Source: a virus. From it: DNA of 64,000 nucleotides. Of the stretch, positions 14,640 to 30,728 are shown piece after piece. Below the pieces are notes generated by a model. That model was not told the DNA's origin, did no database searches, and worked only from the letters and a program-made list of their open reading frames with translations. Location of the stretch: IMG/VR virus record IMGVR_UViG_3300017780_006957, positions 32,001 through 96,000 of that record, one strand, 5' to 3'. The position numbers were made by a program, and so were the translations under genes. Position 1 is the stretch's first letter, and the number at the start of each line of letters is the position of its first letter.

Positions 14640-15001
14640 TTTGTTACTTTTATTTCCATAAACATAGGATACTTTTTTATGTAAGACTCTGCTTCTTTTT
14701 TGCTCTTACAATAAATATCTACTACTATATTCGATTTACCAAGTTTACGAGATGCTCTACGGCTTTTAACTGCTGAACCTGTATCTTGCGCCAAAAATGT
14801 TTTGCCCATCTTTGGAATAAAAATCTTAGATTTATAAGGTATAATCTTAGGATCAACAGCAATAGTTTTATTGACTGTCGGTTTAGCCCCAGTAGAAGTT
14901 TGATATCCATCCCAGTAATAGGTTACTCTCGCCATATAAGTTTGTGCATGGCACAAATTACAAGCGAGCAATAACGCAAGTATTAATGTTTTAATTTTCA
15001 T
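14636..15001 (-). CDS. secreted 3D (three-Asp) domain protein, MltA-like cell-wall enzyme
   Basis: signal peptide; IAVDP..IP, AQDTGSA, VDIY motifs. Confidence 0.85.
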   Translation of the reverse strand: MKIKTLILALLLACNLCHAQTYMARVTYYWDGYQTSTGAKPTVNKTIAVDPKIIPYKSKIFIPKMGKTFLAQDTGSAVKSRRASRKLGKSNIVVDIYCKSKKEAESYIKKYPMFMEIKVTK

Positions 15002-15044
15002 GCTAAAATGATAGCATAAAAATTTTATCATGTAAAGAATTTAT

Positions 15045-15230
15045 TTAAATTTCTTTCTTAAAGATAGCTTTAGTATCTTCCCCAAAAAGAATAGCCTCTT
15101 TTTGAGCGTAGATGTCTGCTAATTCTCTATTATCTTCCCTAAAGGATACAGTCATGCCCTCAGTCAATGGGTTTTTGCCTTTGAGTGCATATACATACTT
15201 TTTTGCTTTCGGTGCTTGTTTTGTTTTCAT
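15045..15230 (-). CDS. hypothetical protein
   Basis: ORF from MKTKQ. Confidence 0.55.
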   Translation of the reverse strand: MKTKQAPKAKKYVYALKGKNPLTEGMTVSFREDNRELADIYAQKEAILFGEDTKAIFKKEI

Positions 15231-15259
15231 ATTAAAAATATTTTGTGTAATAAAGTCAG

Positions 15260-15502
15260 ATGCCAAGACATTTACAATCTCAGATCCATTCAGATTTTTC
15301 TCGTATTTCGGGAACTTGGACTGGCTATAGAGCGCAAATCACTGGCTTGTGGGGTTCTACCTCTAACCATGATGATTTTAATAATCATTTAATTAGAGAA
15401 TATAATCGAAAAATTAATTACCTTAATATGCCAAGTGGATTATATATTATTCCTTATAATGCAGGTTTCAGTTATACTACTGATATTAGTAAGCTTACTT
15501 AA
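15260..15502 (+). CDS. hypothetical protein (probably late)
   Basis: GTGTAA 15 nt upstream of ATG. Confidence 0.65.
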   Translation: MPRHLQSQIHSDFSRISGTWTGYRAQITGLWGSTSNHDDFNNHLIREYNRKINYLNMPSGLYIIPYNAGFSYTTDISKLT

Positions 15503-15506
15503 AAAA

Positions 15507-15525
15507 TGGAGCGGAATGTCAGAGT
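15507..15525 (-). pseudogene. tRNA 3'-end remnant (Gly-like acceptor strand, ...CTGACATTCCGCTCCA)
   Basis: 3' T-stem strand, acceptor strand and CCA with no matching 5' half; overlaps the endonuclease stop codon. Confidence 0.5.
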
Positions 15526-16175
15526 GAAATATAATATTTAATAAAAGTTATACATTTTTCAAGAAAAATTGGAAAATCATTTTTTTTCTTATAATTTAAA
15601 TCATTAGATGAAATTCTCATTATATTCCAACCATTTTTTATTAAATTTGAATCTCTAATAGCATCTTTTTCTTTGTCGTGCCATTTTATACCATCATATT
15701 CTATATTTATTTTATAATCTGGTAAAGCTATATCGAGATAAATATTATCGACTTTGTACTCTTGTTGTAATTCTGGAAATATCTTTTTTAATTCTTCAAA
15801 TAATATATTTTGCCAATAAGATTTTTTACCAGCACATTTCTTATTTGGATGTTTTTCTGGATTTAATTTAAAAAATTCTTTTTTTGATAAAGACATTTTT
15901 AATTTACTTTCATCGCTTCTTTTTGAACCAAGATTTTTTAAAGATAAAGCTTTTTTTCTTTCAAGAGTCCAACTTTCTTTAAGTTTTTGTTTTCTATCCT
16001 CAGTACAAGGTAAAGTTTTTTTGCCTTTTATTGGAGATATTCTACCAGTTGCTTTTTGACTTCTTATTGAATTAATTTCTTCAGTCCAAATTCTTGAATT
16101 AGCGCAAGATCTAGAACAAAAAATACCACTGCCAAATGTTCCATTATGATCTATATTGCATTTTTTACATTGCAT
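15519..16175 (-). CDS. homing endonuclease-like protein (NUMOD3 plus Vsr/DUF559-like nuclease)
   Basis: FCSRSC zinc motif, RSDESKLKMS repeat, LDIA....INIEYDG..WH, RD..L..GW. Confidence 0.8.
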   Translation of the reverse strand: MQCKKCNIDHNGTFGSGIFCSRSCANSRIWTEEINSIRSQKATGRISPIKGKKTLPCTEDRKQKLKESWTLERKKALSLKNLGSKRSDESKLKMSLSKKEFFKLNPEKHPNKKCAGKKSYWQNILFEELKKIFPELQQEYKVDNIYLDIALPDYKINIEYDGIKWHDKEKDAIRDSNLIKNGWNIMRISSNDLNYKKKNDFPIFLEKCITFIKYYISL

Positions 16176-16218
16176 ATAATTATTTACACAATCGAACTAA
16201 CTTTATGAATTAAAAAAA

Positions 16219-16292
16219 TGGTGCGTTATGTGGTAGTCGAAACCACGCTACTAGAGTGGAAGTCTAGTGTGCTACCGTAACACTTATAACGC
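16219..16292 (-). tRNA. tRNA-Gly(UCC)
   Basis: cloverleaf GCGTTAT/ATAACGC, anticodon arm CTAGA-CTTCCAC-TCTAG, encoded CCA. Confidence 0.9.
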
Positions 16293-16297
16293 AAAAT

Positions 16298-16369
16298 TGG
16301 TGGAGCATTTCGGAACTGCCCCGAAGTCCGCAATGCATATAGCATTACGTCGAAATCTATATATGCCCC
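16298..16369 (-). ncRNA. minimal tmRNA-like RNA (tRNA-like domain only, no tag ORF)
   Basis: GGGGCAU/AUGCUCC acceptor with G3.U70, ACCA end, stemless 14-nt D-loop ending UUCGAC, 7-bp P2 hairpin, GGAC linker, T-arm. Confidence 0.8.
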
Positions 16370-16852
16370 TTAACTTTCTTTATTAAACATTACATAATTA
16401 TGAACAGAAACAACATAATCTTCTGCTACAGCAAGTTTACCCTGCATCCATGTTTCTGTCAAGTTATCTTGCACTTTTAAATCATCTAAAGCTGCCAAAA
16501 TGTTTTCGGCGTGAGATTTGATTGAAGCAATAGATCCAATAGCCATTTCATAAAGATCTTTCTTGTATTCGGTCAACTCCTCTTCTGGACTTTCATCTTC
16601 CATTTCTGGAGCATTAAAATCCACTTCTTCAGCCTTGCTAACTTTTTTAAGTGGTTCTGCAAAATCAAGAAATTCATCATCGCCAGATCCGACGACAACA
16701 TCAGCAGAAGCTTTGGCTTGATCGAATTGAGTATAACAGATTGCAATGCGCTGTTGATTGTCTTTGAACTTAGGGTCTTTGGCTACTTCAGAGATGCAGC
16801 GGCCCACAAAATCCTTTTTCTTTTCTTTTTTCTCAGGAGTTGGTAAAGGCAT
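16370..16852 (-). CDS. hypothetical protein (MPLP.P...F..RC...QR.AIC type)
   Basis: start reassigned to MPLPTP; GTGTAA upstream. Confidence 0.75.
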   Translation of the reverse strand: MPLPTPEKKEKKKDFVGRCISEVAKDPKFKDNQQRIAICYTQFDQAKASADVVVGSGDDEFLDFAEPLKKVSKAEEVDFNAPEMEDESPEEELTEYKKDLYEMAIGSIASIKSHAENILAALDDLKVQDNLTETWMQGKLAVAEDYVVSVHNYVMFNKES

Positions 16853-16880
16853 AATTTTATATTTAAAATATATTACACTT

Positions 16881-17126
16881 TTAATGCATGAAGTTAATAA
16901 TTTTCTGAACAGCGACTTCAATGTCCGTTGCGTCTCTTATGATTTTATCTTCAGACCAACTATGGGCCGCATTATATGAGTGATTTTTCATCAATTTATT
17001 TGTTTTTAAATCTACCCAATGGAAAGACTGCCAATCGACAAGATCTTTTAGGTTTTTTATGGTGATTCTCTGTTCTTCATATTTGTTGATTTCGATTTCA
17101 ATAGTAGATGTTCCTTTGATTTTCAT
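16881..17126 (-). CDS. hypothetical protein
   Basis: ORF track. Confidence 0.65.
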   Translation of the reverse strand: MKIKGTSTIEIEINKYEEQRITIKNLKDLVDWQSFHWVDLKTNKLMKNHSYNAAHSWSEDKIIRDATDIEVAVQKIINFMH

Positions 17127-17139
17127 AATAAGAAAGGCA

Positions 17140-17227
17140 AGGACAGTGCGAGATTCGAACTCGCGGTGAGCTTAACGCCCACTTCAGTTTTCAAGACTGA
17201 CGTATTAATCCACTCTACCAACTGTCC
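17140..17227 (-). tRNA. tRNA-Ser(UGA)
   Basis: GGACAGT/ACTGTCC acceptor, TCAGT-CTTGAAA-ACTGA, long variable arm; CCA not encoded. Confidence 0.9.
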
Positions 17228-17233
17228 GTTTAA

Positions 17234-17359
17234 TTATCCTTGGCCGCGATACTTTTTTCTATAATTTTTTGAATTCTTTAGATGAGAGGTCTTGCTTTTA
17301 GCATGGATTCCCTTGCGCTTCTTAGACTTTACACCGTTTTTTTGGTTCTTCTTGTTCAT
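17234..17359 (-). CDS. small highly basic protein ending KKYRGQG (41 aa)
   Basis: MNKKNQKNGVKSKKRKGIHAKSKTSHLKNSKNYRKKYRGQG; below the ORF-track cutoff. Confidence 0.7.
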   Translation of the reverse strand: MNKKNQKNGVKSKKRKGIHAKSKTSHLKNSKNYRKKYRGQG

Positions 17360-17980
17360 TTATTTATTGTTTAGATAGAATTTTTTTAGCACTACTTTAT
17401 TTAAGCCTCTACGACTTTCGATTTCAGGAATGATTGTTTTACGAATCCAATTTCTTTCATACCTTTGATCTTCGTTGCTCTCATCAATTTGAAGATACTT
17501 GAAAAGATTGTTTTTGTCAACCCAATTTTCAAAATTCTTTTTAATGTTCAAGATGAATGGGCGATAGATAGAAAAAGAATTAAAATCAGTAAATTCTTGA
17601 ATTGGTTTGTGTTCTGGGCAACCTTTTAAAGTATTACTTATATAACTCTCTACAGCGTCTTGTAAATGCTGGCATTGAATAATTGACCCACCCACTTGAG
17701 AAAAGAATTTTAATCTTTCTTTCCTTAGTCCATCTTCAATATTTTTATCAATCTTAATAGAACATTTTTCTGTGATAAGATTAATTTTATAGTCAGAACA
17801 AAATCTTTCGCAAGCCTTTTGCATAAGGTTGTTTTGCGGTCTTTGATTATGATTATAGTGAATAGCTTGAAATTTTTGTCCAGATTTATGAAGAAAATGA
17901 GCGCAAGCTAGACTATCTATACCGCCAGAGATAGCAATACTATAAGTTTTTGGTAGGTATTTTTTATTTATTTTGATCAT
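17360..17980 (-). CDS. tilS: tRNA(Ile)-lysidine synthetase-like protein, PP-loop domain only
   Basis: AISGGIDS PP-loop, HYNH..R, R..FF, QHLQD..E, RP, DESN.....RN.IR. Confidence 0.85.
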   Translation of the reverse strand: MIKINKKYLPKTYSIAISGGIDSLACAHFLHKSGQKFQAIHYNHNQRPQNNLMQKACERFCSDYKINLITEKCSIKIDKNIEDGLRKERLKFFSQVGGSIIQCQHLQDAVESYISNTLKGCPEHKPIQEFTDFNSFSIYRPFILNIKKNFENWVDKNNLFKYLQIDESNEDQRYERNWIRKTIIPEIESRRGLNKVVLKKFYLNNK

Positions 17981-18028
17981 TTAATTAAAAGATTATGATA
18001 TTTATCATAATCAGTGTATAATAGTTAT

Positions 18029-18388
18029 ATGCAAAAATGTAATCATTGTCAAGCGAATTTATCTGGTAATCAAACTAAATGGTGTTCGGATAAATGCAAA
18101 CATTCTGTCGCAAATGCGAAACATCAAAATTATCAAGCTCAACAGGAAAGAGGCAAGTCTAGAAAAAGAGATTTAATTAAAATGAAAGGCGGCGGATGTG
18201 AAATTTGTGGTTATAAAAAATCTACAGCCGCTCTATGTTTCCATCATTTAGACCCTTCAATAAAAAAATTTGAATTAGATATAAGAAGCTTATCAAATAG
18301 AAGACTAGATTATATCTTGGATGAAGCCTCAAAATGTCAATTACTTTGCTCTAATTGTCATATGGAAGTTCATCATGGTTTAGTATAA
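18029..18388 (+). CDS. HNH endonuclease
   Basis: CEICGY...LCFHHLDP...KCQLLCSNCHMEVH; GTGTAT 15 nt upstream. Confidence 0.85.
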   Translation: MQKCNHCQANLSGNQTKWCSDKCKHSVANAKHQNYQAQQERGKSRKRDLIKMKGGGCEICGYKKSTAALCFHHLDPSIKKFELDIRSLSNRRLDYILDEASKCQLLCSNCHMEVHHGLV

Positions 18389-18396
18389 AATTAAAG

Positions 18397-18486
18397 TACA
18401 AAAGGTGAGACTCGAACTCACAAAGGACTTTCACGTCCATAACGGTTTATGAAACCGCGCCCTTAACCAATTCGGGTCACTTTTGC
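18397..18486 (-). tRNA. tRNA with CAU anticodon (Ile2/Met) and long variable arm
   Basis: GCAAAAG/CTTTTGT, GCGGT-TTCATAA-ACCGT, V-arm GGAC-GTGAAA-GTCC, T-arm GTGAG-TTCGAGT-CTCAC; no CCA. Confidence 0.85.
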
Positions 18487-18499
18487 ATTATTTAGAAAG

Positions 18500-18577
18500 T
18501 GGTAGTCACGGTGGAATTCGAATCCACACTGTAATGATTTTAAGTCATTTGTCTCCTACCAGTTGGACTACGTGACC
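18500..18577 (-). tRNA. tRNA-Leu(UAA), short variable loop
   Basis: GGTCACG/CGTGACT, AATGA-CTTAAAA-TCATT, encoded CCA. Confidence 0.9.
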
Positions 18578-18617
18578 TTTTTTATTTTATCTCACTGACT
18601 TACTCAGTGATGTCCTT

Positions 18618-18646
18618 ATCTTACTCTTAGTTGGCGGGATTGTCAA
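18618..18646 (-). promoter_or_regulatory. sigma70-type promoter for the tRNA-Leu/tRNA-CAU unit
   Basis: TTGACA-17-TAAGAT followed by hairpin TCACTGA-gtaag-TCAGTGA. Confidence 0.75.
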
Positions 18647-18692
18647 CTTTTTTCTGCAAAAAAAGTGTAATGAGATTAAACACATTAAAATT

Positions 18693-20003
18693 ATGTCCGC
18701 TCAATACACTTTTAATCACCTTGGGCAGCTGTCCCACAGTGCAGCCACAATGCCGTGTCTTTATGATAGCGCACAAGATGTATATAGACCAATAAATGAT
18801 TTAGATTTTGGTGGCCAAGGAAGCTATACATCAAAGGGAAGATTAAAAACTTCAAACGTCGAAACGTTCTTCTTTAATACATTTCAATATGGTAAAGAAA
18901 CCGATATTTGGGACGAATCAACTGCAAATGGTGGTTCAGGAATATACGATTCTAACATTAATCAAATTGATATGTCAGTCAGTAATATCTCTGGATCTGA
19001 ATGCGTTAGACAGACAAAAAATGTCCAAAGATATGTTCCTTCAAGAAATTCTAATTTAGCTTTTGCGGTTAAATTAGGAAATCCAACTCTTGGAATTAGA
19101 AGACGTTTTGGTTTGTTTGAGCCAAACGATGGAATCTTTTTCGAAGATGGCGGCGATAATAATTATTATTGTGTTATCCGTAGTTCTGTTAGCGGCTCAG
19201 TGAATGAAATTAAAGTCGCAAGAAACAATTGGAATGGTGACAAATTAGATGGAACTGGACCAAGTAAAATAATTGCAAATCCGCAAGCTCAACAATTAAT
19301 TGCCATTGATTATGAATGGTATGGTGCTGGTGAGATAGGATTTAATTATGTTATTAATGGATCTCCCGTGAGAATACACACATTTAATACAGCAAATAAT
19401 TTTACTGATCCTTGGTGCAAAACTCCATTCTTACCTATAAGAGTAGAAATAACAAACACTAGTGGCGGTCAATCTAGCGGTAGATATCATATTTATCAAG
19501 GATCAAATTCATTAACCTCAGAAGGAAATTCATTAAATCTTGGCGTTGCAGAGTCTATTTCTACATCAATAGATGGAAAAGAAATTCCTAAAGATATATT
19601 TTATCCGTTAATAAGCTTAAGATTAAAATCTAATTCACTTAAAGGAGTTGTTTTTCCAAGACATTTTCAAGTAGCAACTACTGAAAATAATGTCCATGTT
19701 TTTTATAAAATACTTAGAAATGCCGCTATATCTGGGGCTGTTTGGCAAAATCATCCAGATACTAATTCATTTGTTCAATATGATATTTCTGGAACAGCAT
19801 ATAGTAATGGGCAAACTGTTGATGATGGTTTTGTTGTATATGGATCTTCCGCAGGTCAAATAGAACTTGATGATGCATTAAATTATCAAATAGGTAGAAG
19901 CGGCATGGGTCTATACAGTGATACTTACACATTGGCCGTAGCTCATACGGCATCCACAAATAGAAGCGTCATAGGATCTATGTCTTGGATTGAACAGAGA
20001 TAA
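18693..20003 (+). CDS. putative virion structural protein
   Basis: 436 aa, Gly/Ser/Asn-rich, beta-rich composition; GTGTAA upstream; terminator downstream. Confidence 0.6.
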   Translation: MSAQYTFNHLGQLSHSAATMPCLYDSAQDVYRPINDLDFGGQGSYTSKGRLKTSNVETFFFNTFQYGKETDIWDESTANGGSGIYDSNINQIDMSVSNISGSECVRQTKNVQRYVPSRNSNLAFAVKLGNPTLGIRRRFGLFEPNDGIFFEDGGDNNYYCVIRSSVSGSVNEIKVARNNWNGDKLDGTGPSKIIANPQAQQLIAIDYEWYGAGEIGFNYVINGSPVRIHTFNTANNFTDPWCKTPFLPIRVEITNTSGGQSSGRYHIYQGSNSLTSEGNSLNLGVAESISTSIDGKEIPKDIFYPLISLRLKSNSLKGVVFPRHFQVATTENNVHVFYKILRNAAISGAVWQNHPDTNSFVQYDISGTAYSNGQTVDDGFVVYGSSAGQIELDDALNYQIGRSGMGLYSDTYTLAVAHTASTNRSVIGSMSWIEQR

Positions 20004-20004
20004 T

Positions 20005-20036
20005 AAAAAAGCCTATCTTTTGAAGATAGGCTTTTT
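20005..20036. terminator. bidirectional intrinsic terminator
   Basis: AAAAAAGCCTATCTT-ttg-AAGATAGGCTTTTT between convergent units. Confidence 0.85.
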
Positions 20037-20043
20037 AATGAAA

Positions 20044-20130
20044 TGGAGCTAAAGGTGAGATTCGAACTCACGGTGCGCTTTCGCATCTCGATTACAAATC
20101 GAGTCCTTTCGACCACTGAGGGACTTTAGC
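20044..20130 (-). tRNA. tRNA-Thr(UGU) with long variable arm
   Basis: GCTAAAG/CTTTAGC, CTCGA-TTTGTAA-TCGAG, V-arm TGCG-AAAG-CGCA, encoded CCA. Confidence 0.85.
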
Positions 20131-20166
20131 AAAATATTAATTAATAATGGTTATGAAGTAAAAAGG

Positions 20167-20238
20167 CTCCCAGTTTTGGCAACGATCCAAACTCACACTG
20201 CTTAACAGGCAGGTCGCACGCCCTGTGCGTTACTGGGA
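20167..20238 (-). tRNA. tRNA-Asn(GUU), atypical T-loop
   Basis: TCCCAGT/ACTGGGA-G, CTGC-CTGTTAA-GCAG, T-loop ATCGTTG. Confidence 0.8.
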
Positions 20239-20269
20239 TTTATATCTTATTATATAAGAATAAGAAAGT

Positions 20270-20438
20270 TTTTCTATCGCTGAAGAAGTCCCCCGTTTCC
20301 ACAGAGGTCAATGACCCTTCTTCACTTTTCTACAAGTACTAACTCGCTGGAGAGTTTGACCACGCGATGCGTAGCTACACTCATTTTCCTGTCCGTTTTC
20401 TCTGAATACTTCGGGCGATCAAAACGCACGATAGAAAA
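20270..20438 (-). ncRNA. structured ncRNA A (169 nt)
   Basis: 10-bp terminal stem UUUUCUAUCG/CGAUAGAAAA, several internal hairpins, GC-rich, no ORF. Confidence 0.65.
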
Positions 20439-20442
20439 TTGA

Positions 20443-20504
20443 CCAATTCCTGACCTGCCGCGCACTACTTTATCAGGTATAGCCGCTTGCAGTCAGGCAA
20501 TTGG
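20443..20504 (-). ncRNA. structured ncRNA B (62-nt bulged hairpin)
   Basis: CCAAUU-G-CCUGAC-UGC / GCA-G-GUCAGG-AAUUGG. Confidence 0.55.
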
Positions 20505-20507
20505 AAA

Positions 20508-20677
20508 TGGTTTTGCGGCTCAGGTCGCTATATCGTGCAATGTGTTCCCAACCGAATAATCGTCTCGAAAGACTCGATTTCTATCAACTGCATTAACCCA
20601 TCACTGAATCGTGCGTTTTATGTTGACTACCTTGCACAAACGTCTTAGTTGACGAATACCCCTCAATGACCGCAAAA
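20508..20677 (-). ncRNA. structured ncRNA C (170 nt, ends CCA)
   Basis: terminal stem UUUUGCGG/CCGCAAAA plus CCA; internal GUGCAA/UUGCAC and GUCU-UUCG-AGAC. Confidence 0.65.
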
Positions 20678-20681
20678 TTAG

Positions 20682-20838
20682 TTTATCTGTCAGACCTTAA
20701 CGCCTATGCCCCTCGCGCATAGACAGCATCTTCGCTGGTTCACGGATGGGCCACTTTGTAGTGCCGTAAGTGCAGCACCTCAGACGGATCTCCAGCATAG
20801 GTCTTCACAGCTGTGTGTAGATATTCTCGACAGATAAA
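20682..20838 (-). ncRNA. structured ncRNA D (157 nt)
   Basis: 10-bp terminal stem UUUAUCUGUC/GACAGAUAAA; internal GCUGG/CCAGC and CUAUGC/GCAUAG. Confidence 0.65.
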
Positions 20839-20841
20839 AAA

Positions 20842-20955
20842 TGCAGAAGAGATTGGATTCGAACCAATATTGTACCATACTGCCCTTGGGCATCCAAGGA
20901 ATCGAACCTTAACGAAATAACCGTCGCTATTGCATTGCCGTTATGCTACTCTTCT
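20842..20955 (-). ncRNA. tRNA-like RNA E with expanded anticodon region containing a second T-arm
   Basis: AGAAGAG/CUCUUCU acceptor, D-arm GCAU-AACGGCA-AUGC, T-arm AUUGG-UUCGAAU-CCAAU, extra AAGG-UUCGAUU-CCUU. Confidence 0.75.
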
Positions 20956-20963
20956 AAAAAAGG

Positions 20964-21036
20964 TGGCTAGAGTGTTTGTGGAATCTCAGGAATTGCATCC
21001 TGTTATACTAGTAACTTGCCAGATTCCCTCTAGCCA
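20964..21036 (-). ncRNA. structured ncRNA F (73 nt)
   Basis: UGGCUAGAG/CUCUAGCCA, GGAAUCU/AGAUUCC, apical CAGGA/UCCUG hairpin. Confidence 0.65.
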
Positions 21037-21048
21037 TTGAAAATTTGT

Positions 21049-21142
21049 CCATAGAGTATGCACTCTCAATGCGTTATGCAGGACTGGCACTAGCTATATG
21101 AATCCTTATAGCTGGAGAAGGAAGCCCGTAACCTTCATATGG
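21049..21142 (-). ncRNA. structured ncRNA G (multi-hairpin)
   Basis: CCAUA/UAUGG closing GAAGG/CCUUC, AGCUAUA/UAUAGCU and AGAGU/ACUCU hairpins. Confidence 0.55.
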
Positions 21143-21154
21143 CTTTTTATATTT

Positions 21155-21233
21155 ACAATGTATGGTTATTAACCCACACGGAATTTCAAGCATTAACCCA
21201 CTACGTATATGGTAACTCACCGATTTCCATTGC
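21155..21233 (-). ncRNA. putative ncRNA H with two GUGGGUUAAU repeats
   Basis: GCAAUG/CAUUGU closing stem, AU-rich flanks. Confidence 0.45.
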
Positions 21234-21242
21234 AAAAATTAA

Positions 21243-21357
21243 TATTCCTTTAATGGTAGGCGTTGTCGCATTCAAATCTCTACCCACCACAATCGCTTCA
21301 AGATTCTCGTTCGCTTACCGCACGGGGCATGAAGCCCCTTGTCCCATTAAGGGAATA
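21243..21357 (-). ncRNA. structured ncRNA I (115 nt)
   Basis: UAUUCCCUUAAUGG/CCAUUAAAGGAAUA terminal stem; GGGGC-UUCAU-GCCCC hairpin. Confidence 0.6.
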
Positions 21358-21376
21358 AAATTTTTAAAATTTTTAT

Positions 21377-21389
21377 TTATTAAAGAACA
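21377..21389 (-). promoter_or_regulatory. boxA-like antitermination element
   Basis: TGTTCTTTAATAA vs rrn boxA TGCTCTTTAACAA; preceded by leader hairpins. Confidence 0.6.
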
Positions 21390-21463
21390 GTATTTTATCT
21401 CTAATCGTTGACTAGAGAGGATCTTTCGAATCTGAGTGACTCCTATTCAATCGATCTATTTAG

Positions 21464-21492
21464 ATAATAACTTATGTTTTCGCTTATGTCAA
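21464..21492 (-). promoter_or_regulatory. sigma70-type promoter of the stable-RNA operon
   Basis: TTGACA-17-TATTAT. Confidence 0.8.
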
Positions 21493-21495
21493 CTT

Positions 21496-21714
21496 TTATC
21501 TTAGATTTAATTCACTCTCTACTTTTCGGAATCTGTCATCAGAATGCCAGATTTCATTTACTTGTGGAGTATAAACTCCATCAAGGGTTTGAATCGGGAC
21601 GTTCTTTTGCAGCTTTAAAGTAGAAGGTTGATAAATTTTCCAGTTCTTCACGTTCTCGTTTGAGTTCCATACGCAGGAGGTCTGCGCGATCAGCAGAAGA
21701 GCTGCCCCCATCAT
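21496..21714 (-). CDS. putative lipoprotein (o-spanin/Rz1-like), overlapping upstream gene
   Basis: hydrophobic MMGAALLLIAQTS-C lipobox-like segment; start embedded in 21581..21850 in another frame (exact start uncertain). Confidence 0.5.
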   Translation of the reverse strand: MMGAALLLIAQTSCVWNSNENVKNWKIYQPSTLKLQKNVPIQTLDGVYTPQVNEIWHSDDRFRKVESELNLR

Positions 21715-21850
21715 TACGCAGCTTTTCAATTTCGTCAAGTATTTCTTTTTGTCTATTTTTTGATTTGATTCTGATTTCATAATAAAATGATTTGTTTTTT
21801 AAGTTTAAATAAAGTTCCAGTGATTTAATTAAAGAAGTTAAAATTCCCAT
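21581..21850 (-). CDS. hypothetical coiled-coil protein (possible i-spanin partner)
   Basis: amphipathic N-terminus plus coiled coil; overlap geometry like Rz/Rz1. Confidence 0.5.
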   Translation of the reverse strand: MGILTSLIKSLELYLNLKNKSFYYEIRIKSKNRQKEILDEIEKLRNDGGSSSADRADLLRMELKREREELENLSTFYFKAAKERPDSNP

Positions 21851-21856
21851 ATTAAA

Positions 21857-22420
21857 TTATATAAAACTTTTCCACTCTTTTCTAATTTTGGACACCTGAA
21901 GAAAAAGATTAGGAATTACTGGAGCTTTTACTATTTCATTTTTAATATTAAAAAATGGAGAATGATCGGACTTCTTTTGATTGCAGTCAAGACAAGCCAA
22001 AGTCCTATTTTCGTGTTCATCAGTTCCGCCCTTACTTTTTGGTTTGATGTGATCAATAGTAAGATCTGCGATTTTAAATTTCTTTAAACAATACTGGCAA
22101 ATAGAATCATGAATTCTGCTTAATTCCGCCAAAGATAGTTTTTTCTTTTTGGGTTTTTTAAAAAATTTACTGGTTACAATAATAATTGTTGGAATTGGCC
22201 AAGAGCGTTTTGCGCTACGAAGAACGGGCTGATCTTCATGGAACTCCGCATAATCATTCCACTTCTCTATAGAATCAAACAAATTATTGTTTTTATCTAA
22301 AGCGGTGACATTTTGACTTAATAGATGCGCGAAAGCAGCCTTTGCTGTGATGGCAGTGATAGGTTGCCAAGCGTTATTAAGTAAGAGTGTGGTTCTAGTA
22401 TTGCAATCTACGATGTTCAT
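21857..22420 (-). CDS. HNH endonuclease (McrA-like)
   Basis: CQYC...LTIDHIKPKSKGG...N...AC..CN..K. Confidence 0.85.
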   Translation of the reverse strand: MNIVDCNTRTTLLLNNAWQPITAITAKAAFAHLLSQNVTALDKNNNLFDSIEKWNDYAEFHEDQPVLRSAKRSWPIPTIIIVTSKFFKKPKKKKLSLAELSRIHDSICQYCLKKFKIADLTIDHIKPKSKGGTDEHENRTLACLDCNQKKSDHSPFFNIKNEIVKAPVIPNLFLQVSKIRKEWKSFI

Positions 22421-23097
22421 TAATCAATAACTTGCCCCAAAAACATTGGGAAGATTTTAGATAAAGCTATAGCGCATTGTTTTGCAACTTCAATATGCTC
22501 TTTCTGAGTCCCATTGCCAGTGCGAACTTCAAGATAATGAATCCAACTACGAATAGTTCCGTTCATATATAAACGACTCATCATATTTCCTTCTGGAAGA
22601 ACTGATCGAGCTACTTCTTTTGCTATCCCATTTTCAATAGCCCAATCATAAGTTTCTTTTGCTTTTTCAATTAATTGTTTTTGTCTAACTTCCCAACGAT
22701 AAGAAAGAACTTCATTATTTGTTTCTACTGAATTTTGACGATTCTTTGTATCTTGAAGACGGGCTTCGCGGACTACCATTGGCAATACAGAAGTAGGATC
22801 TGCATAACGCTGAGAAAATTCTTGAAAAGCAAATGATCTGTGGCGAAGAATTTGGCGAGCAATATCTCTTGTCGTTTCGATTTCAAGAACAGCGTTACAC
22901 ATTTCAAATGGTGAAAAATGTTTGTGTTTAAGAAGATAATTAATCAACTTATCTGCCGTATCCATATTCATTTGATTAGAAGGATTAGACACTCTTCCGC
23001 AAAATGTGATTAGATCGGAAATGGTTTCCACTCCTGTTCCAGCAAAATAATCTTTATCAGGAATTGTATAGCCGACTAGTTTTACTTTATTACTCAT
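22420..23097 (-). CDS. thyX: FAD-dependent thymidylate synthase
   Basis: H.SPFE, RQILRHRSFAFQEFSQRY, E.AR.VLP, TQKEH. Confidence 0.95.
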   Translation of the reverse strand: MSNKVKLVGYTIPDKDYFAGTGVETISDLITFCGRVSNPSNQMNMDTADKLINYLLKHKHFSPFEMCNAVLEIETTRDIARQILRHRSFAFQEFSQRYADPTSVLPMVVREARLQDTKNRQNSVETNNEVLSYRWEVRQKQLIEKAKETYDWAIENGIAKEVARSVLPEGNMMSRLYMNGTIRSWIHYLEVRTGNGTQKEHIEVAKQCAIALSKIFPMFLGQVID

Positions 23098-23767
23098 TAG
23101 TTTTTAAATTGTATTGATTTTCATAAAAAGAACAAGACAAATCTCCATTATTATAATATTTTTTATCAGACTTTGGGTAATTCGAAATAATTTCATAGTT
23201 CAATGAAGCTTTCATTTGTTTCTTTTGCTTCTTTGAGCCAACAAAAAAGAAATATCTGTGCTTTGGCATAGGTTTTATCTTTTGTATATTATTTTCTTTG
23301 GCCCAAATAGCTGGCTTAGTAATGCCTAGCTTATCTCTAAGGGTCATTGGGTGGGTTGCCACTCCATCAATCAAATAAAGACTGTCATGAGATACTGTTG
23401 CGCCTGTATATAGCCAATTTGTTGCTTGATAAACTATACCACTATGTCCATGAGCCGAATCTGCATAGCTTATAATCGCACAGAACCGCTCTTTAAGCAT
23501 TTTAGTAGATTGACTAATCAAAAATGATGCGGCGTTTTTTACATCATTATCTACGACTAATCTAGTCAATTCATAAAGTCTAAAATCCCTATCTTTAAAT
23601 GCGTATTTTTGAATAGGTGCTGACGGTTGACCAAAGCAACATACTCCAATAAGTTTGTTATCATTAAAAAGACCAAAGCCTTCCCAGAAAATGCCAAGTC
23701 TTTTGGAGTAGTGTTTATTTGATATGATTAAATCAGCTATTGATTTATCAATTCTTTTGACGGTCAT
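23090..23767 (-). CDS. Mom-like DNA adenine modification protein
   Basis: HYS, ELTRL, AS.LIS, ISYAD...GH.G.VYQATNW.YTG. Confidence 0.75.
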   Translation of the reverse strand: MTVKRIDKSIADLIISNKHYSKRLGIFWEGFGLFNDNKLIGVCCFGQPSAPIQKYAFKDRDFRLYELTRLVVDNDVKNAASFLISQSTKMLKERFCAIISYADSAHGHSGIVYQATNWLYTGATVSHDSLYLIDGVATHPMTLRDKLGITKPAIWAKENNIQKIKPMPKHRYFFFVGSKKQKKQMKASLNYEIISNYPKSDKKYYNNGDLSCSFYENQYNLKTNE

Positions 23768-25654: not shown

Positions 25655-26509
25655 TCAATATGGCATATTCAGCCCTGAGCCTATAGTTTGTCTGAATAGT
25701 TGTTTAAATAAGTTTGAGATATTTAATCCTAAAGCCCTTTGGAATACTACAGCGAATGCTCCTGTATCGGCTCTAGTTGCTGATGTTCCATATGTATTGA
25801 ATAAGAAACTATTTGTGCCTGTTGCAAGATATGGTAATACACCTATACCTTCTTGAGTATTACCCGTGGAGTTATTTTGCTGAACAAAATAGTTTCCATT
25901 AACAGGGTCATATATATTATTAGTTTGACCAAAATAATAATTATAACCTGACGGTGTTGGACCTGGTGTTATTCTTGCATATTTTTGAGCAAAAGATGGG
26001 GTAAGAGCGCTACTTCTCATAAGTGTTTGTCCATTGGGTTGAAATATTGACAAAGCTAACTTGGCTGTAGCATCATTCGTCGTACCACTATTATCTAATG
26101 TAACTAATAAAGTAAATGGAAGTATATTTGTTGATCTAAAAACTCCACATAGAGAAGCTTGAGTCCATCCAGTTGTTCTCACAGGAATATCTATTCTTTT
26201 ATAGTTTACTACTTGATCAAAGAATATACCAGACCCATCGCTATTCCATACAGGGCTATTTGTCATAGTACCATTATAAGTGCCTAATCCACCTAGACTA
26301 TAAACAGTAGATCCAGTACCAGCATTATGAATACTTCTCATTGGCCAACAAACCATAGAATTCCATAATCCTAGTTTCTTTGTTCCTATTACAAATTTAT
26401 TAATTTGTTTTAAGTTTTCGGGCAATATAGTTTTACCACTACCCACTTTAACTCTAGTAGCAAAAGCAATAGTGTCTTTATCTAATCCAAATGTTCTTGT
26501 TCTTGGCAT
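25655..26509 (-). CDS. putative virion adhesin paralog 5
   Basis: shared F..G.K.LGLW..MVCWPMR...NAG.GSTVYSLGGLG block and T.G.GL.MP C-terminus. Confidence 0.65.
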   Translation of the reverse strand: MPRTRTFGLDKDTIAFATRVKVGSGKTILPENLKQINKFVIGTKKLGLWNSMVCWPMRSIHNAGTGSTVYSLGGLGTYNGTMTNSPVWNSDGSGIFFDQVVNYKRIDIPVRTTGWTQASLCGVFRSTNILPFTLLVTLDNSGTTNDATAKLALSIFQPNGQTLMRSSALTPSFAQKYARITPGPTPSGYNYYFGQTNNIYDPVNGNYFVQQNNSTGNTQEGIGVLPYLATGTNSFLFNTYGTSATRADTGAFAVVFQRALGLNISNLFKQLFRQTIGSGLNMPY

Positions 26510-26510
26510 A

Positions 26511-27326
26511 TTATGGTAATCCTAATGTTTTTCCGATTGTTGCTTTACATAGATTATAAAAACTTAATTGAGTGCTATCGTCAAGTGCTTTATCAAAGTC
26601 AGCCGCTAAAGACATTGTTCCATTAAGTCCTCTATCGTTCAAACCACCTCCTTGCATTGCCATGCATCTAATGTTATTTGTGTCTGCAATCGGAAAGGCT
26701 ACTCTCGTTGTCGTATTCTTGGAGGCTCCATTTCTGAAGGAATATGCTTGATTAAAATTTAATGCACTGGAAAGACAAACTCTTTGATTATTGTTGACGG
26801 TTTGGCTTAAAGTTGTTCTATTTAAAGAAACTCCCCACTGGAAAAGATTTGAAAAGAAAAATCCTTCCCCTGATGGGGATGCAAACCCAAGATTATAATT
26901 AGATGTTAATAGATAAACTTCCTCTAATGTGAGCGCATTTCGAATAAAAATGGATATTATATTTCTTGTAAAATAATTTGTTTTTTTGGTGTTTAAGAGT
27001 TGAATATAAGGTGGGGGATTTCCTAGACCAGTAGATCTAATACCATCAATTTCCCATACTATGTTGCCAACAGCTATGCCCATTTTTGTTGAATCAAGAA
27101 GACTGCATACGCTTTGTCCTGCGCCCACATTATATCTATTACTCATCAACCATATTTCTCCACTACCCCATATCCCCAAATCTTTTAATCCAATAATAAA
27201 ATTATCAATATCAACAGCATCAGCATTAGTTATCTTATCTAGACCATTTAATTGTCTATAAGTATTAACTCTATTGAGATAACGTTTAGTATCTATGTCG
27301 AAAGTGTATTTTCGTGTAGTAGGCAT
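26511..27326 (-). CDS. putative virion adhesin paralog 4
   Basis: DIDNFIIGLKDLG...TIGKTLGLP. Confidence 0.65.
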   Translation of the reverse strand: MPTTRKYTFDIDTKRYLNRVNTYRQLNGLDKITNADAVDIDNFIIGLKDLGIWGSGEIWLMSNRYNVGAGQSVCSLLDSTKMGIAVGNIVWEIDGIRSTGLGNPPPYIQLLNTKKTNYFTRNIISIFIRNALTLEEVYLLTSNYNLGFASPSGEGFFFSNLFQWGVSLNRTTLSQTVNNNQRVCLSSALNFNQAYSFRNGASKNTTTRVAFPIADTNNIRCMAMQGGGLNDRGLNGTMSLAADFDKALDDSTQLSFYNLCKATIGKTLGLP

Positions 27327-27327
27327 A

Positions 27328-28179
27328 TTAAGGTAATCCTAAGTTTTTGCCGATTGTTGTTTTTATTAAAGCGTATACATTTAAATATTCGGCAGGTGAT
27401 ATATATCTATTTGCTATCATCATTAAAGCCATCGCACCTTGAAAGTAATCTCCCGAACCTGTTTGACCATTTCTAGCTCCGATACCCATAGTATTAAATG
27501 TAGCATTACTAAAGAAACTCAATGCTTTAGTACCAGCGTTTGTAGTTGTGTTAATAGAAGCAGCTAGCCCTGTGGTTAAGCTTTCACCAAAGGATACATA
27601 ATTAACATGCATTGCTGCTGTGTTGTAAGGTGAATAAAATCTAGATCCTGCACTTGTACCATCAGAAGGTGATGAACCAAAGGTTACAAAAAGACCACCG
27701 ACGTTAATGCCAACATACGAATGAGATTGTACATTTATACGAAATCCTCTTGTAGTAGCAGTGACTCCATCATTAGCTAGTAATGCTCTAGCTGCTGTAG
27801 TGTAATCTGGTTGATGTAAACATATCATACTAAACCCAGCAACAACAGGACTATTTAAAAAATTAGGTATTCTTATATACTGTGAATTAGCGGCAGTAAA
27901 ATTAATACCAGATGATCCCCACGAAGGACCGTTTATCATAACACCATCAAACTTTCCTATGCCTCCAAATGATAATATGTTAGCTCCAGAACCCAAGTTA
28001 TGCTGGCTTCTAAAAGGATAAACAATAATGTTTTGTAGTAAATTTAATTGTTTTAATCCCGCTATGAAATTATCTATGTCTGCGATATCAGACAAATTTA
28101 ATTCTCTACCATAAGAATATAATCTTCTTAGATATTGTCTTGTCTCAGTTTGGAGACCATATGATTTAGAATTTACCAT
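27328..28179 (-). CDS. putative virion adhesin paralog 3 (LamG-like core)
   Basis: DIDNFIAGLKQL...IGAR...YFQG...TIGKNLGLP. Confidence 0.65.
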   Translation of the reverse strand: MVNSKSYGLQTETRQYLRRLYSYGRELNLSDIADIDNFIAGLKQLNLLQNIIVYPFRSQHNLGSGANILSFGGIGKFDGVMINGPSWGSSGINFTAANSQYIRIPNFLNSPVVAGFSMICLHQPDYTTAARALLANDGVTATTRGFRINVQSHSYVGINVGGLFVTFGSSPSDGTSAGSRFYSPYNTAAMHVNYVSFGESLTTGLAASINTTTNAGTKALSFFSNATFNTMGIGARNGQTGSGDYFQGAMALMMIANRYISPAEYLNVYALIKTTIGKNLGLP

Positions 28180-29009
28180 TATAAAATTTCTTCTATTATT
28201 CCTGTTGTAACAGTAGGCTTATTCTTAGCTATTAGAGTATTTGTGCCGTATAAATCTCTACCATCTGATGTGCCTGATCTTTCATTCAATGGCCAATATG
28301 AAACTAGACCATTTACTAGTGATGGTGTGTAATATATAGCTTCTAAAAATGATCTACCACTACCTGAATTATATAACGATGTTCTCTCTGCCGCTGTTAA
28401 TACTCTTGACCATTGCCAAATTCTTGCTGCTTGACCATTTAATGACACATCAACAGGATTCCAAGCGGCAGCTATTCTTAAATCTCCAACATTAGAAGTG
28501 AACCCTCCAGCTAAAACAGCAGATACTATAGCTCCATCATCAACTTGAATATAATAAGAAGATCCATCATACCAACCATTGACTAATTGCCAATTATTTG
28601 ATGGTGCTATATTACTAGATATATTTGTTGTGCCATATTTAGCAAAATAGATATATGTTCCAAAATATAATGCTGGCCCTCCTTGACCCTTGCCTATTAT
28701 AGTTCCATTATTTGACCCTTTAAACCAAGCAACAAAAGTAAAAGGTGAAGTTGTAAAGTTAATGGTAGAATTGGTTGGACAACTCATATGTTGAGATGCA
28801 GCTCCTCCTGTGCTTCCTGAACCACCAGCAAAACTTCTAGTTGTTGTACTAGTAGAATTTGGTAATGATAAATTATTTGTTTTCCTGAGAATAAAATAAT
28901 CATTAACTGCTTTTACTCCAGCAGTATTAAGAGAAAATCCACTATTACCTTCCATTCTCTTAAGGAAGGCTTTTGTTTCTTTTTCTAAATTGTAATATCT
29001 TTTTGCCAT
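28179..29009 (-). CDS. LamG/concanavalin A-like virion protein (paralog 2)
   Basis: FTFVAWFK, W.LV...YDG, WSRVLTAAER..LYN, GLVSYWPLNE. Confidence 0.75.
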   Translation of the reverse strand: MAKRYYNLEKETKAFLKRMEGNSGFSLNTAGVKAVNDYFILRKTNNLSLPNSTSTTTRSFAGGSGSTGGAASQHMSCPTNSTINFTTSPFTFVAWFKGSNNGTIIGKGQGGPALYFGTYIYFAKYGTTNISSNIAPSNNWQLVNGWYDGSSYYIQVDDGAIVSAVLAGGFTSNVGDLRIAAAWNPVDVSLNGQAARIWQWSRVLTAAERTSLYNSGSGRSFLEAIYYTPSLVNGLVSYWPLNERSGTSDGRDLYGTNTLIAKNKPTVTTGIIEEIL

Positions 29010-29010
29010 A

Positions 29011-29904
29011 TTATGGTAATCCTAAGCCGTTTCCGAGGGTGTTTTTATAGAGATCTGTAAACTGAATGCCTTGATCGTAAATATCTATGTTAGCGTGTAA
29101 TAAAAATGGAAGATTCCATGTTTGATTGTTAGTGCTGGTATACGTATATCTAAAATCAACTGTTGTTACTCCTCCATTCCAATCGAAGCTTGCATTGGAC
29201 GCAGATTTAGGCGTTTTGTTATAATATCCTCTTGCTGAGGATATTGAATTAACCGACATGATTACACTCTTGAATGTCGAGCTTGTGAAAGAGCCGAAGT
29301 TTAATTGCTGCGTTCTCCATGCCAAATATTCTCTATTGCCTCCTGGTAGGTAAAAAAGTTTACCATTAAACATGCTATGCCCTACTACACTATTTGATGT
29401 ATATCCAGAAGTATTAGAGTTATCAACTGTCACCATAGCACATGGAACATTTGACAATTTTAAAGACGGTACATTCAAATAACTATTATTAACTGACCAA
29501 AAAATTCCTAAACTACTCCAACTAACAGCATTAACAAGCGTTCCGTTATGAACACCTAACCCACCTAAACTATACACTGTTGATCCAGCTCCAGCATTCT
29601 GATAATTTCTCATTGGCCAACAAACCATATTCTGCCAAAGACCCAATGTCTTCATTCCTCTAGTAAACCAAAGCACTTCACATCTCCCCAAAGGATCTGT
29701 GACTCCTGCTCTACTGAGATATGCATCACCATCTACATCATTAAAGCCTAAGCTAAGCCTAGACCAATCACCAGACTTCTTTAGACTTTCTACTCTATCA
29801 TTAATGGCTTTTATTGCAGAAGAAGACACAACGATACCTTGTTCGCTCTGTAAGCGATTTATATAGGATTTTACTTCGTTTTGTATTCCGTAGAATTTCA
29901 TCAA
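29011..29904 (-). CDS. putative virion adhesin paralog 1
   Basis: LGLWQNMVCWPMR...NAGAGSTVYSLGGLG; TLGNGLGLP end. Confidence 0.65.
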   Translation of the reverse strand: MMKFYGIQNEVKSYINRLQSEQGIVVSSSAIKAINDRVESLKKSGDWSRLSLGFNDVDGDAYLSRAGVTDPLGRCEVLWFTRGMKTLGLWQNMVCWPMRNYQNAGAGSTVYSLGGLGVHNGTLVNAVSWSSLGIFWSVNNSYLNVPSLKLSNVPCAMVTVDNSNTSGYTSNSVVGHSMFNGKLFYLPGGNREYLAWRTQQLNFGSFTSSTFKSVIMSVNSISSARGYYNKTPKSASNASFDWNGGVTTVDFRYTYTSTNNQTWNLPFLLHANIDIYDQGIQFTDLYKNTLGNGLGLP

Positions 29905-30728
29905 ACTCCCTCCCAGAAAATATAACGACCAGTTGATCCAGATATGGTATTTACGGAGACATCTCCTTTGTATCTGTCATCAAAGAATTTTTCTCCTCTA
30001 GCGTCGAATTCAGCTGTTCCAGGATATAACATAAAATTAAATGAACTAGTATTACAGCCTAAACCATATTTCACATACAACGGAACTGTCCCGAAATTTT
30101 GCCCAACTAAAGTAATTCTATTGGAATTACCAGATACCACTTGAGTGCCGACTCCAGATGAAGAAGTTCCACTAATTAACCCAGTAATATAATTTGACAC
30201 AGATCCATATCCAATATCAAAATTAGTAACACTATCAATATCTTTATCCAAATCGGCCTGATATGCTAATGCTCCGCCATTATCTTTGTCGAAGTTGAAT
30301 GATACAGCATCATTGCGGCCATAATTTGGATAGAATCCACTGCCCATATCTACTGCTCTTCCTCCAACATTTTGAATTTCAATAGGAACTACTGCGGAAT
30401 ATAAACCAGTAGATGTTCCTGATCCAGTAAGATAACCAGTAAGATAACCAGATGCTAAGTCTACTCTTTCGTTTGGAGCGTCATAGAAAATCTGAAGGCG
30501 ATTTGTATCTGCCATCACTCCGCTCGTAGTATAATTTAATTTTAAAGAATTATTTCCTACGCCTGTAATGTATCCACCAGCAGTTGGATCTGCAAAATTA
30601 TAAATAATTTTATTTTGAGTAACATTGGTAACTAAAAGAAAATTCTCTAAAACTAATCCAGAATATTGGGTAAGCTGAACTATTCCTGAGTTTGAATTAA
30701 AATTATAACCTGTAATTAATTTTTTCAT
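29901..30728 (-). CDS. putative tail/baseplate structural protein
   Basis: LL.TNVT.N.IIYNFADP...LQIFYD N-terminal module typical of fibre-associated proteins. Confidence 0.65.
   Translation of the reverse strand: MKKLITGYNFNSNSGIVQLTQYSGLVLENFLLVTNVTQNKIIYNFADPTAGGYITGVGNNSLKLNYTTSGVMADTNRLQIFYDAPNERVDLASGYLTGYLTGSGTSTGLYSAVVPIEIQNVGGRAVDMGSGFYPNYGRNDAVSFNFDKDNGGALAYQADLDKDIDSVTNFDIGYGSVSNYITGLISGTSSSGVGTQVVSGNSNRITLVGQNFGTVPLYVKYGLGCNTSSFNFMLYPGTAEFDARGEKFFDDRYKGDVSVNTISGSTGRYIFWEGV

Follow-up and report, generated by a model that had tools for sequence, protein, structure and literature searches.

What can a phage encode in more than a kilobase of DNA that contains no credible open reading frame (ORF)? 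The question is posed by a locus within a stretch of 64,000 nucleotides (nt), positions 32,001 to 96,000 of the IMG/VR record IMGVR_UViG_3300017780_006957, hereafter referred to as the window, to which all coordinates given without a locus name refer. The window derives from an uncultivated tailed phage of freshwater, the DNA of which is present in lake-water metagenomes from about 20 studies, and carries genes for RIIA and RIIB, thymidylate synthase, Mom, a J-like tail protein, a DnaE-like polymerase, a UvsX-like recombinase and HNH endonucleases. We find that the locus probably constitutes a single untranslated operon of ~1.45 kb, in which a promoter is followed by a leader, ten structured RNA units, the transfer RNA (tRNA) genes tRNA-Asn and tRNA-Thr and a terminator, with no conserved ORF. 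The reading that best accounts for the observations, and that we consider likely to be correct, is that of a boxA-protected polycistronic operon for stable RNAs, laid out in the manner of tRNA operons and composed of independent cassettes.

The comparative material comes from motif scans of IMG/VR and the JGI metagenomes, which yielded 47 usable loci (L004–L054; 442 kb in total), with L020, L025, L027, L028 and L031 discarded as chance motif matches within coding DNA. Profile searches with nhmmer recovered end-to-end homologs of each unit in 8–37 loci of uncultivated freshwater phages. All parts of the operon, as well as all six tRNA genes of the window, lie on the minus strand. At its head, a sigma-70-type promoter, TTGACA-17-TATTAT (21464–21492), matches the consensus at 11 of 12 positions, is the top-scoring site within 15000–23000 (8 kb) and is kept at the equivalent place in three relatives (L048, L049 and L012). 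At the opposite end stand tRNA-Asn (GUU; 20165–20238, detected by ARAGORN), which comes after the last unit, U9, in many relatives, tRNA-Thr (UGU; 20044–20130, 87 nt with a long variable arm, detected by ARAGORN and by Rfam with 54.8 bits) and an intrinsic terminator (20005–20036), composed of a 14-bp stem (20036–20006) and a U run, that the operon has in common with the convergent gene for a virion structural protein (18693–20003, plus strand). A preliminary description of this DNA had named the promoter, a boxA-like element, both tRNAs and a strong terminator, all of which could be located, and had claimed that the region lacks a credible ORF and is richer in GC than its surroundings, which proved accurate: GC content is 0.42–0.47 over 20100–21150 vs 0.27–0.38 in the flanks, and the longest ORF on the RNA strand measures 53 amino acids (aa), so that ~1.1 kb is ORF-poor.

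An antisense ORF of 90 aa (21139–21411, plus strand) runs across the first two units, U1 and U2, and cannot be conserved, because tRNAs part U1 from U2 in relatives. A small ORF within U9 (20 codons, with a Shine–Dalgarno-like AGGA) was considered as a candidate and rejected, its start being missing in L013 and the region being deleted in L012, L015 and L026. The minus strand folds better than the plus strand by 43 kcal/mol, and the invariant G-U pairs of unit U6 (columns 54–86 and 60–79) would be C-A mismatches on the opposite strand, which identifies the minus strand as the RNA strand.

Splitting of the region at closing helices gave a leader (U0) followed by ten units (U1, U2, U3a, U3b and U4 to U9), which span 21355–20274 and range in size from 29 to 168 nt. 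Each unit possesses a closing helix of its own, and the spacers between units are A/U-rich and G-poor. The discreteness of the units, as originally proposed, is upheld, whereas their number, given as about nine, has to be raised to ten; the accompanying claim that the units are not repeats of one another agrees with our comparison of the units, which found none. The case for structure is carried by comparative evidence, which is strong in all units. In alignments of 6–24 distinct related sequences per unit, 95–100% of cells are paired, 3–13 pairs per unit show compensatory change, and none of 300 column shuffles reached the observed pairing. When the pairing partners were slid by 1–2 columns, pairing mostly fell to 30–54%, remaining higher in the 5-pair U3a. 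Because these slid controls drop and many independent helices covary, a chance origin of the pairing is unlikely. The compensatory changes preserve pairing across sequences as low as 59–72% in identity, and long invariant stretches occur besides. Single-sequence folding z-scores are convincing only for U4 (−3.95), U8 (−3.76), U5 (−2.7), U9 (−2.69), U1 (−2.1) and the leader (−2.1).

The units differ widely in architecture. U1 (21245–21355) is a 111-nt multi-helix RNA closed by a helix of ~10 bp, with full-length homologs in 13 loci and compensatory change in 9 of its 28 pairs. The branched U2 (21153–21235; 83 nt, 31 loci) comprises helix P1, a 3-bp CGG/CCG helix, P2 and P3, with invariant junction strands; P1 and the CGG/CCG helix covary, and nine pairs in all are compensatory. 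Conservation of the motif UGGGUUAAU is confined to the P3 loop of U2 and an optional insert of U7. A candidate H-type pseudoknot of 29 nt, U3a (21117–21145), is known in 15 distinct copies, is found alone in L019, L022 and L043 and has three compensatory pairs in stem 2, stem 1 being almost invariant. U3b (21047–21113; 67 nt), with 23 distinct copies, as many as three of which, diverged from one another, share a locus, consists of a variable hairpin, a hairpin with the invariant 7-nt loop CAGUCCU, a third hairpin and a 3′ GGAC. Its loop hairpin is 97% paired with two compensatory pairs (0 of 500 shuffles), and the loop can itself pair with the 3′ GGAC (100% paired, one compensatory pair).

Farther downstream, the Y-shaped U4 (20962–21035; 74 nt, 14 loci) has stacked closing stems of 8 and 7 bp, a T-arm-like hairpin and a 3′ tail ACC, with 99.5% of cells paired and four compensatory pairs, and is followed by U5 (20842–20955; 114 nt, ten compensatory pairs), a tRNA-derived RNA devoid of an anticodon loop. 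U6 (20684–20836), a pseudoknotted RNA of 153 nt with long invariant junctions, has one copy in the window and homologs in 37 loci (24 distinct sequences); it is 98% paired with 11 compensatory pairs (0 of 500 shuffles; 30–41% in the slid controls), and in its pseudoknot, where the loop of a hairpin pairs with a strand farther downstream, pairing is 100% and two of three pairs are compensatory. The largest unit, U7 (20508–20675; 168 nt, 24 loci), has a closing helix, a 3′ tail ending in ACCA and ten compensatory pairs, and occurs in short forms lacking the central domain in L012 and L048. U8 (20443–20504; 62 nt, 18 loci) is a long hairpin with an invariant 10-nt apical loop, in which five pairs changed on both sides and six on one. 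Finally, U9 (20274–20434; 161 nt, 25 loci) is a multi-helix RNA with the closing helix CUAUCG/CGAUAG, five compensatory pairs and a covarying long-range helix UGAUC/GAUCA.

Do these units belong to known RNA families? At the gathering score, Rfam 15 recognized only tRNAs in the whole window, and at E values up to 10 it reported no GOLLD, ROOL, Y RNA, 6S RNA, signal recognition particle RNA, RNase P RNA, transfer-messenger RNA (tmRNA) or ribozyme within 19900–21700, so that the Rfam check suggested at the outset, which named GOLLD, ROOL, YrlA, SRP, 6S and ribozymes, returned nothing except tRNA matches. Applied to 14 related loci, the same search found tRNAs, group I introns within tRNA genes and one tmRNA (L008), the latter a true tmRNA, which indicates that the search is able to detect such RNAs. 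This tmRNA gene is full-length (L008, 4565–4884, plus strand; 93.8 bits), and the intron-bearing tRNA genes of relatives lie in the same islands (for instance, L005, 355–618, minus strand, and L006, 6637–6838, minus strand).

The initial statement that no unit belongs to a known family holds for all units except U5, which matches the Rfam tRNA model (RF00005) over 20955–20844 with 40.4 bits (E = 1.2e-06; gathering score, 29 bits) and a 50-nt insert in the anticodon region, a match absent from the filtered run at the gathering score. U5 retains three elements of a tRNA, namely, an acceptor stem (7 bp), a D arm and a T arm of canonical form; in all homologs, a loop of 4 nt closes the anticodon stem, after which come another T-arm-like hairpin and then a third hairpin. 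No 7-nt anticodon loop with a stable anticodon was found among the homologs, which ARAGORN labels as Ser(cga), Gln(ttg) and Ser(act) with differing ‘introns’. As judged from these features, U5 is a tRNA-derived scaffold that is unable to decode, and U4 is perhaps tRNA-derived, too. A tRNA ancestry of U5, and perhaps U4, is what would be expected if the locus were transcribed yet without function, a collection of decayed tRNA genes and of traces left by introns and homing endonucleases, and the group I introns in the tRNA genes of relatives, together with the many HNH and GIY-YIG genes, fit such an origin as well. However, tRNA features and Rfam matches to tRNAs or introns are missing from eight of the ten units, and compensatory substitutions hold 95–99% of cells paired in each unit, alongside long invariant stretches, which makes accumulated debris highly improbable.

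The distribution of the units among relatives speaks to how they are organized. They invariably reside on the tRNA strand of tRNA islands, the largest of which contain 20 or more tRNAs, in arrangements such as tThr-U6-tSer, U5-tArg-U6, U3a-tGlu-U2 and U6-tAsn, and particular unit families are not tied to particular tRNAs. Whole units have been gained and lost: U6 is seen without U7–U9 and U7 without U6, and in the closest record (G001), which is 96% identical to the window, exactly 20954–20842, that is U5, is absent, with divergence beginning past 20435. Unit order is roughly colinear among relatives, with no obligatory set of units, and HNH and GIY-YIG homing-endonuclease genes are found among the cassettes. 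At positions −1 to −5 of 299 island tRNAs, G accounts for no more than 3%; the unit flanks are comparably A/U-rich, their exact positions being fuzzy as the predicted closing helices run into A/U runs, so that only the A/U-rich, G-poor character is used here. The units are best read as independent, exchangeable cassettes.

The same distribution bears on the possibility that the locus encodes one large multi-domain RNA of the GOLLD or ROOL type, with the units as its domains and linkers that may hold tRNAs, forming a single, perhaps multimeric, RNA-only particle. GOLLD (RF01998) and ROOL (RF03087) are elaborate pseudoknotted phage RNAs encoded close to tRNA islands, the function of which is not established (PMC12286853). 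The lake origin of the present phage would suit this explanation, GOLLD having first been found in lake metagenomes, as would the roughly colinear unit order and a 12-nt complementarity between U9 (20421–20432) and U7 (20608–20619) in the window. Yet GOLLD and ROOL are single RNAs of ~580 to more than 800 nt with a conserved core, in contrast to the independent cassettes of 29–168 nt seen here, and no match to either was obtained at E values up to 10. Instead of an obligatory contiguous core, we find units singly or in many combinations directly between tRNAs, with U6, U7, U9, U2 and U3b each found without the others; all well-supported helices lie within units; and the U9/U7 complementarity is broken by one-sided changes in L019, L024 and L005. 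The earlier suggestion that the units are subunits of one RNA assembly is weakened by these observations, and a GOLLD-like particle appears quite improbable.

How could a transcript of this kind be completed? The leader (21397–21456) folds into two hairpins (21456–21420 and 21419–21397; folding z-score −2.1), and across seven distinct homologs 10 of its 22 pairs show compensatory change, with the observed pairing reached by none of 300 shuffles. It is followed by the boxA-like motif UGUUCUUUAAUA (21378–21389), located 68–79 nt past the predicted transcription start and representing the sole match to the degenerate motif YGYTCTTTNATA in the window. The motif is retained after both hairpins in seven relatives, where its flanks diverge and the downstream cassettes differ. 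Counted by eye, 11 of 13 positions are identical between UGUUCUUUAAUA and UGCUCUUUAACAA, which we take to be the boxA consensus of the Escherichia coli rrn operons. With its boxA consensus, promoter-proximal place and conservation among relatives, the motif agrees with that of an rrn-type leader. Because the motif holds its position and is conserved, we infer antitermination of the ribosomal RNA (rRNA) type, whereby a complex of Nus factors on boxA would render the host RNA polymerase resistant to Rho and to pausing, as in rRNA operons. Antitermination would be sensible in this setting because the 1.2 kb of untranslated RNA include several closing helices with U runs 3′ of them; it would let the polymerase cross this hairpin-rich RNA and could aid co-transcriptional folding. 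The arrangement resembles the boxB-boxA-boxC leader of rrn operons, where a promoter-proximal hairpin and then a boxA-like sequence head a long untranslated structured transcript, but differs in that it is phage-borne and precedes small RNAs and tRNAs instead of rRNA.

The cassette behaviour and the tRNA-like spacing suggest how such a precursor might be processed. Host enzymes that mature tRNAs, namely, RNase E, RNase P and 3′ exonucleases, would cut it in the A/U-rich, G-poor spacers, and trimming down to the closing helices would release stable RNAs of 29–168 nt. More speculatively, these products might be trans-acting and target proteins or RNAs with which the host carries out translation, RNA turnover or tRNA-directed defence, with U5 and U4 presenting tRNA elbow and acceptor surfaces without decoding, and the homing-endonuclease genes of the islands may carry the cassettes between phages. 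We rank a trans-acting role, that is, binding of proteins or RNAs, first because the single-stranded junctions and loops of U6, U2, U8 and U3b are invariant, the cassettes are independent of one another and no coding genes lie downstream; a cis-acting role in tRNA production would come second, and a GOLLD-like particle and neutral debris lower.

In the cis-acting case, the units would be spacers that increase the yield of the island's tRNAs, by providing platforms for processing, barriers to nucleases or insulation of transcription, and would have no function of their own once processed. Their constant location within tRNA islands, on the tRNA strand and between tRNA-like spacers, as well as their stable closing helices, would be natural under this explanation. 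Nevertheless, 1.2 kb with ten different elements would have only two tRNAs to serve, a barrier hairpin would need far less than the long single-stranded junctions of invariant sequence and the pseudoknots found here (U6, U3b and the U8 loop), and no family is paired with a particular tRNA, so that we regard a pure spacer role as unlikely. A more specific version of the trans-acting role, which we put forward tentatively and hold to be rather doubtful as a whole, is an RNA kit for counter-defence and host take-over, in which U5 and U4 (perhaps also U7, with its ACCA tail) would mimic tRNAs without decoding and serve as decoys for tRNA-directed defence nucleases of the host or tRNA-modifying toxins and U6 and U3b would sequester proteins or be catalytic, the cassettes being swapped in the course of an arms race with the host with the help of homing endonucleases.

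Several observations weigh against the reading of the locus as a boxA-protected operon of independent stable RNAs. The single-sequence z-scores of U2 (−1.45), U7 (−1.06), U6 (−0.63) and U3 (−0.17) are unremarkable, and the shuffle tests overstate significance, their counts not being probabilities, because the alignments are small and the sequences related. Taken by itself, the boxA match is not significant in 64 kb, since 39 of 100 shuffles yield at least one match. A second promoter-like site, TAGAAA-16-TATAAT (20249–20276, minus strand; 10 of 12 positions), lies between U9 and tRNA-Asn and could give tRNA-Asn and tRNA-Thr their own, partly independent start. No evident protein partner of the RNAs was found among the neighbours, which include a PP-loop ATPase, Mom, thymidylate synthase, HNH, GIY-YIG, ClpP-like and Hc1 proteins and small ORFs. 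As for expression, metatranscriptome contigs from four libraries of three studies hold homologs of U2–U9, joined to other sequence at unit borders; these contigs stem from relatives, may include DNA and cannot show ends or levels, and the uncovered stretches and the high depth of U7 in one run are not readable as expression levels, so that we take them as a hint of expression and nothing beyond that.

No close cultured relative of the phage was found: a blastn search with 1.6 kb against 50,697 phage records, from which near relatives may be missing, returned only a 68-nt tRNA match. A synteny search via the virion protein led to one locus, which is non-syntenic. The U2 and U6 motifs had no match in 185,579 bacterial and archaeal species genomes in an exact-pattern scan, which would miss diverged homologs; as these scans found no near-identical counterpart in a host or prophage, they offer no clue to the host.

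Other features of the window and of the related islands deserve mention. Upstream of the operon lies a gene for a Mom-family protein (23090–23767, minus strand; PF25680, E = 3e-38). On the other side, a 91-nt tRNA-Met/Ile (CAU) with a long variable arm (18396–18486, minus strand) is found near an ORF for a 206-aa PP-loop ATPase (17360–17980, minus strand; PF01171, E = 2e-30), which looks like a minimal TilS-like enzyme. For a 72-nt segment at 16298–16369 (minus strand), ARAGORN and Rfam report nothing. Farther away, six consecutive ORFs of 271–297 aa (25655–30728, minus strand) look like a tandem array of paralogs: the two that were compared are 34% identical over their first 109 residues (E = 1e-18), and the one scanned against Pfam has no family there.

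Among the relatives, the ORF-free gaps of the 47 loci contain, besides U0–U9, 43 more clusters of recurring segments of 50–300 nt, at least 13 of which are present in 4–24 loci, lying between tRNAs and units; the cassette repertoire of the clade is probably several-fold larger than that of the window. An ORF of 73 aa with no Pfam family recurs between U6 and U7 in ten loci (for example, L013, 2360–2581, plus strand); the window lacks it, U6 and U7 being direct neighbours there. Between U1 and tRNA-Pro, L005 (1738–2034, minus strand) carries three compact genes that are tRNA-like, encode their CCA ends and have unusual T loops; all three are missed by ARAGORN, and one is seen by Rfam. The tRNA island of another relative encodes an Hc1 histone-H1-like protein (L022, 7005–7202, minus strand; PF07432, E = 2e-12).

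Collectively, ten unrelated RNA families supported by covariation are found in one operon and recur in dozens of lake-phage contigs, with alignments, structures and natural presence/absence variants now to hand for their study. The binding targets of the RNAs, the decoy role of the tRNA-shaped ones and the use of rRNA-type antitermination for batteries of untranslated RNA become testable questions, and U6, with its 153 nt, pseudoknot and long invariant junctions, is suited to structural study.

How does the array compare with stable RNAs of other phages? YrlA-type RNAs are outlined as tRNA mimics that are present in phages (PMC4201824). U5 and U4 resemble Y RNAs in that they lack a decoding loop and retain the acceptor and T-arm elements of tRNAs, but the ends of U5 make an acceptor stem and not a Ro-binding stem, there is no match to a Y RNA in Rfam, and no Ro60 gene was found among the neighbours scanned.

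More extensive parallels exist with the stable RNAs of the tRNA clusters of T4 and T5. To our knowledge, no function has been established for these RNAs in about half a century, and few relatives have been available for comparison. The T5 genome (AY692264) contains six misc_RNA genes of 103–172 nt among its tRNAs (RNAI, RNAIII, RNAIV, RNA1, rna2 and RNA2H), which, like the units described here, share their strand with the tRNAs and stand partly in tandem (RNA1-RNAI-RNAIII-tRNA-His), with HNH genes and short promoters interspersed. None of the T5 stable RNAs is in Rfam; in nhmmer searches of the T5 region with the profiles of all units, the best E value was 0.007, with only T-arm-like hits of U5, and the covariance model of U6, the one unit for which such a test was made, found nothing in the T5 and T4 loci. 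The two systems differ in that ten units stand here in one unbroken row behind a single promoter and a boxA-type leader; moreover, the polymerase of the present phage is DnaE-like, so that by this gene the phage is not a relative of T5. In T4, rnaC (species 1, 139 nt) and rnaD (species 2, 119 nt) are co-transcribed and processed with the tRNAs. They are located at the end of the tRNA cluster (NC_000866), after tRNA-Arg and on the same strand, and adjoin the homing endonuclease gene segB (PMC2330249 for segB). T4 has two such RNAs, compared to ten in the window, and no boxA-type leader is annotated there. Just as in T4 and T5, the tRNA cluster of the present phage holds non-tRNA RNA genes of ~100–170 nt that point in the same direction as the tRNAs. 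The present array is of the same kind as the stable RNAs of T4 and T5, and what is new are its RNA families, their number, the unbroken row in which they stand and the boxA-type leader that precedes them.

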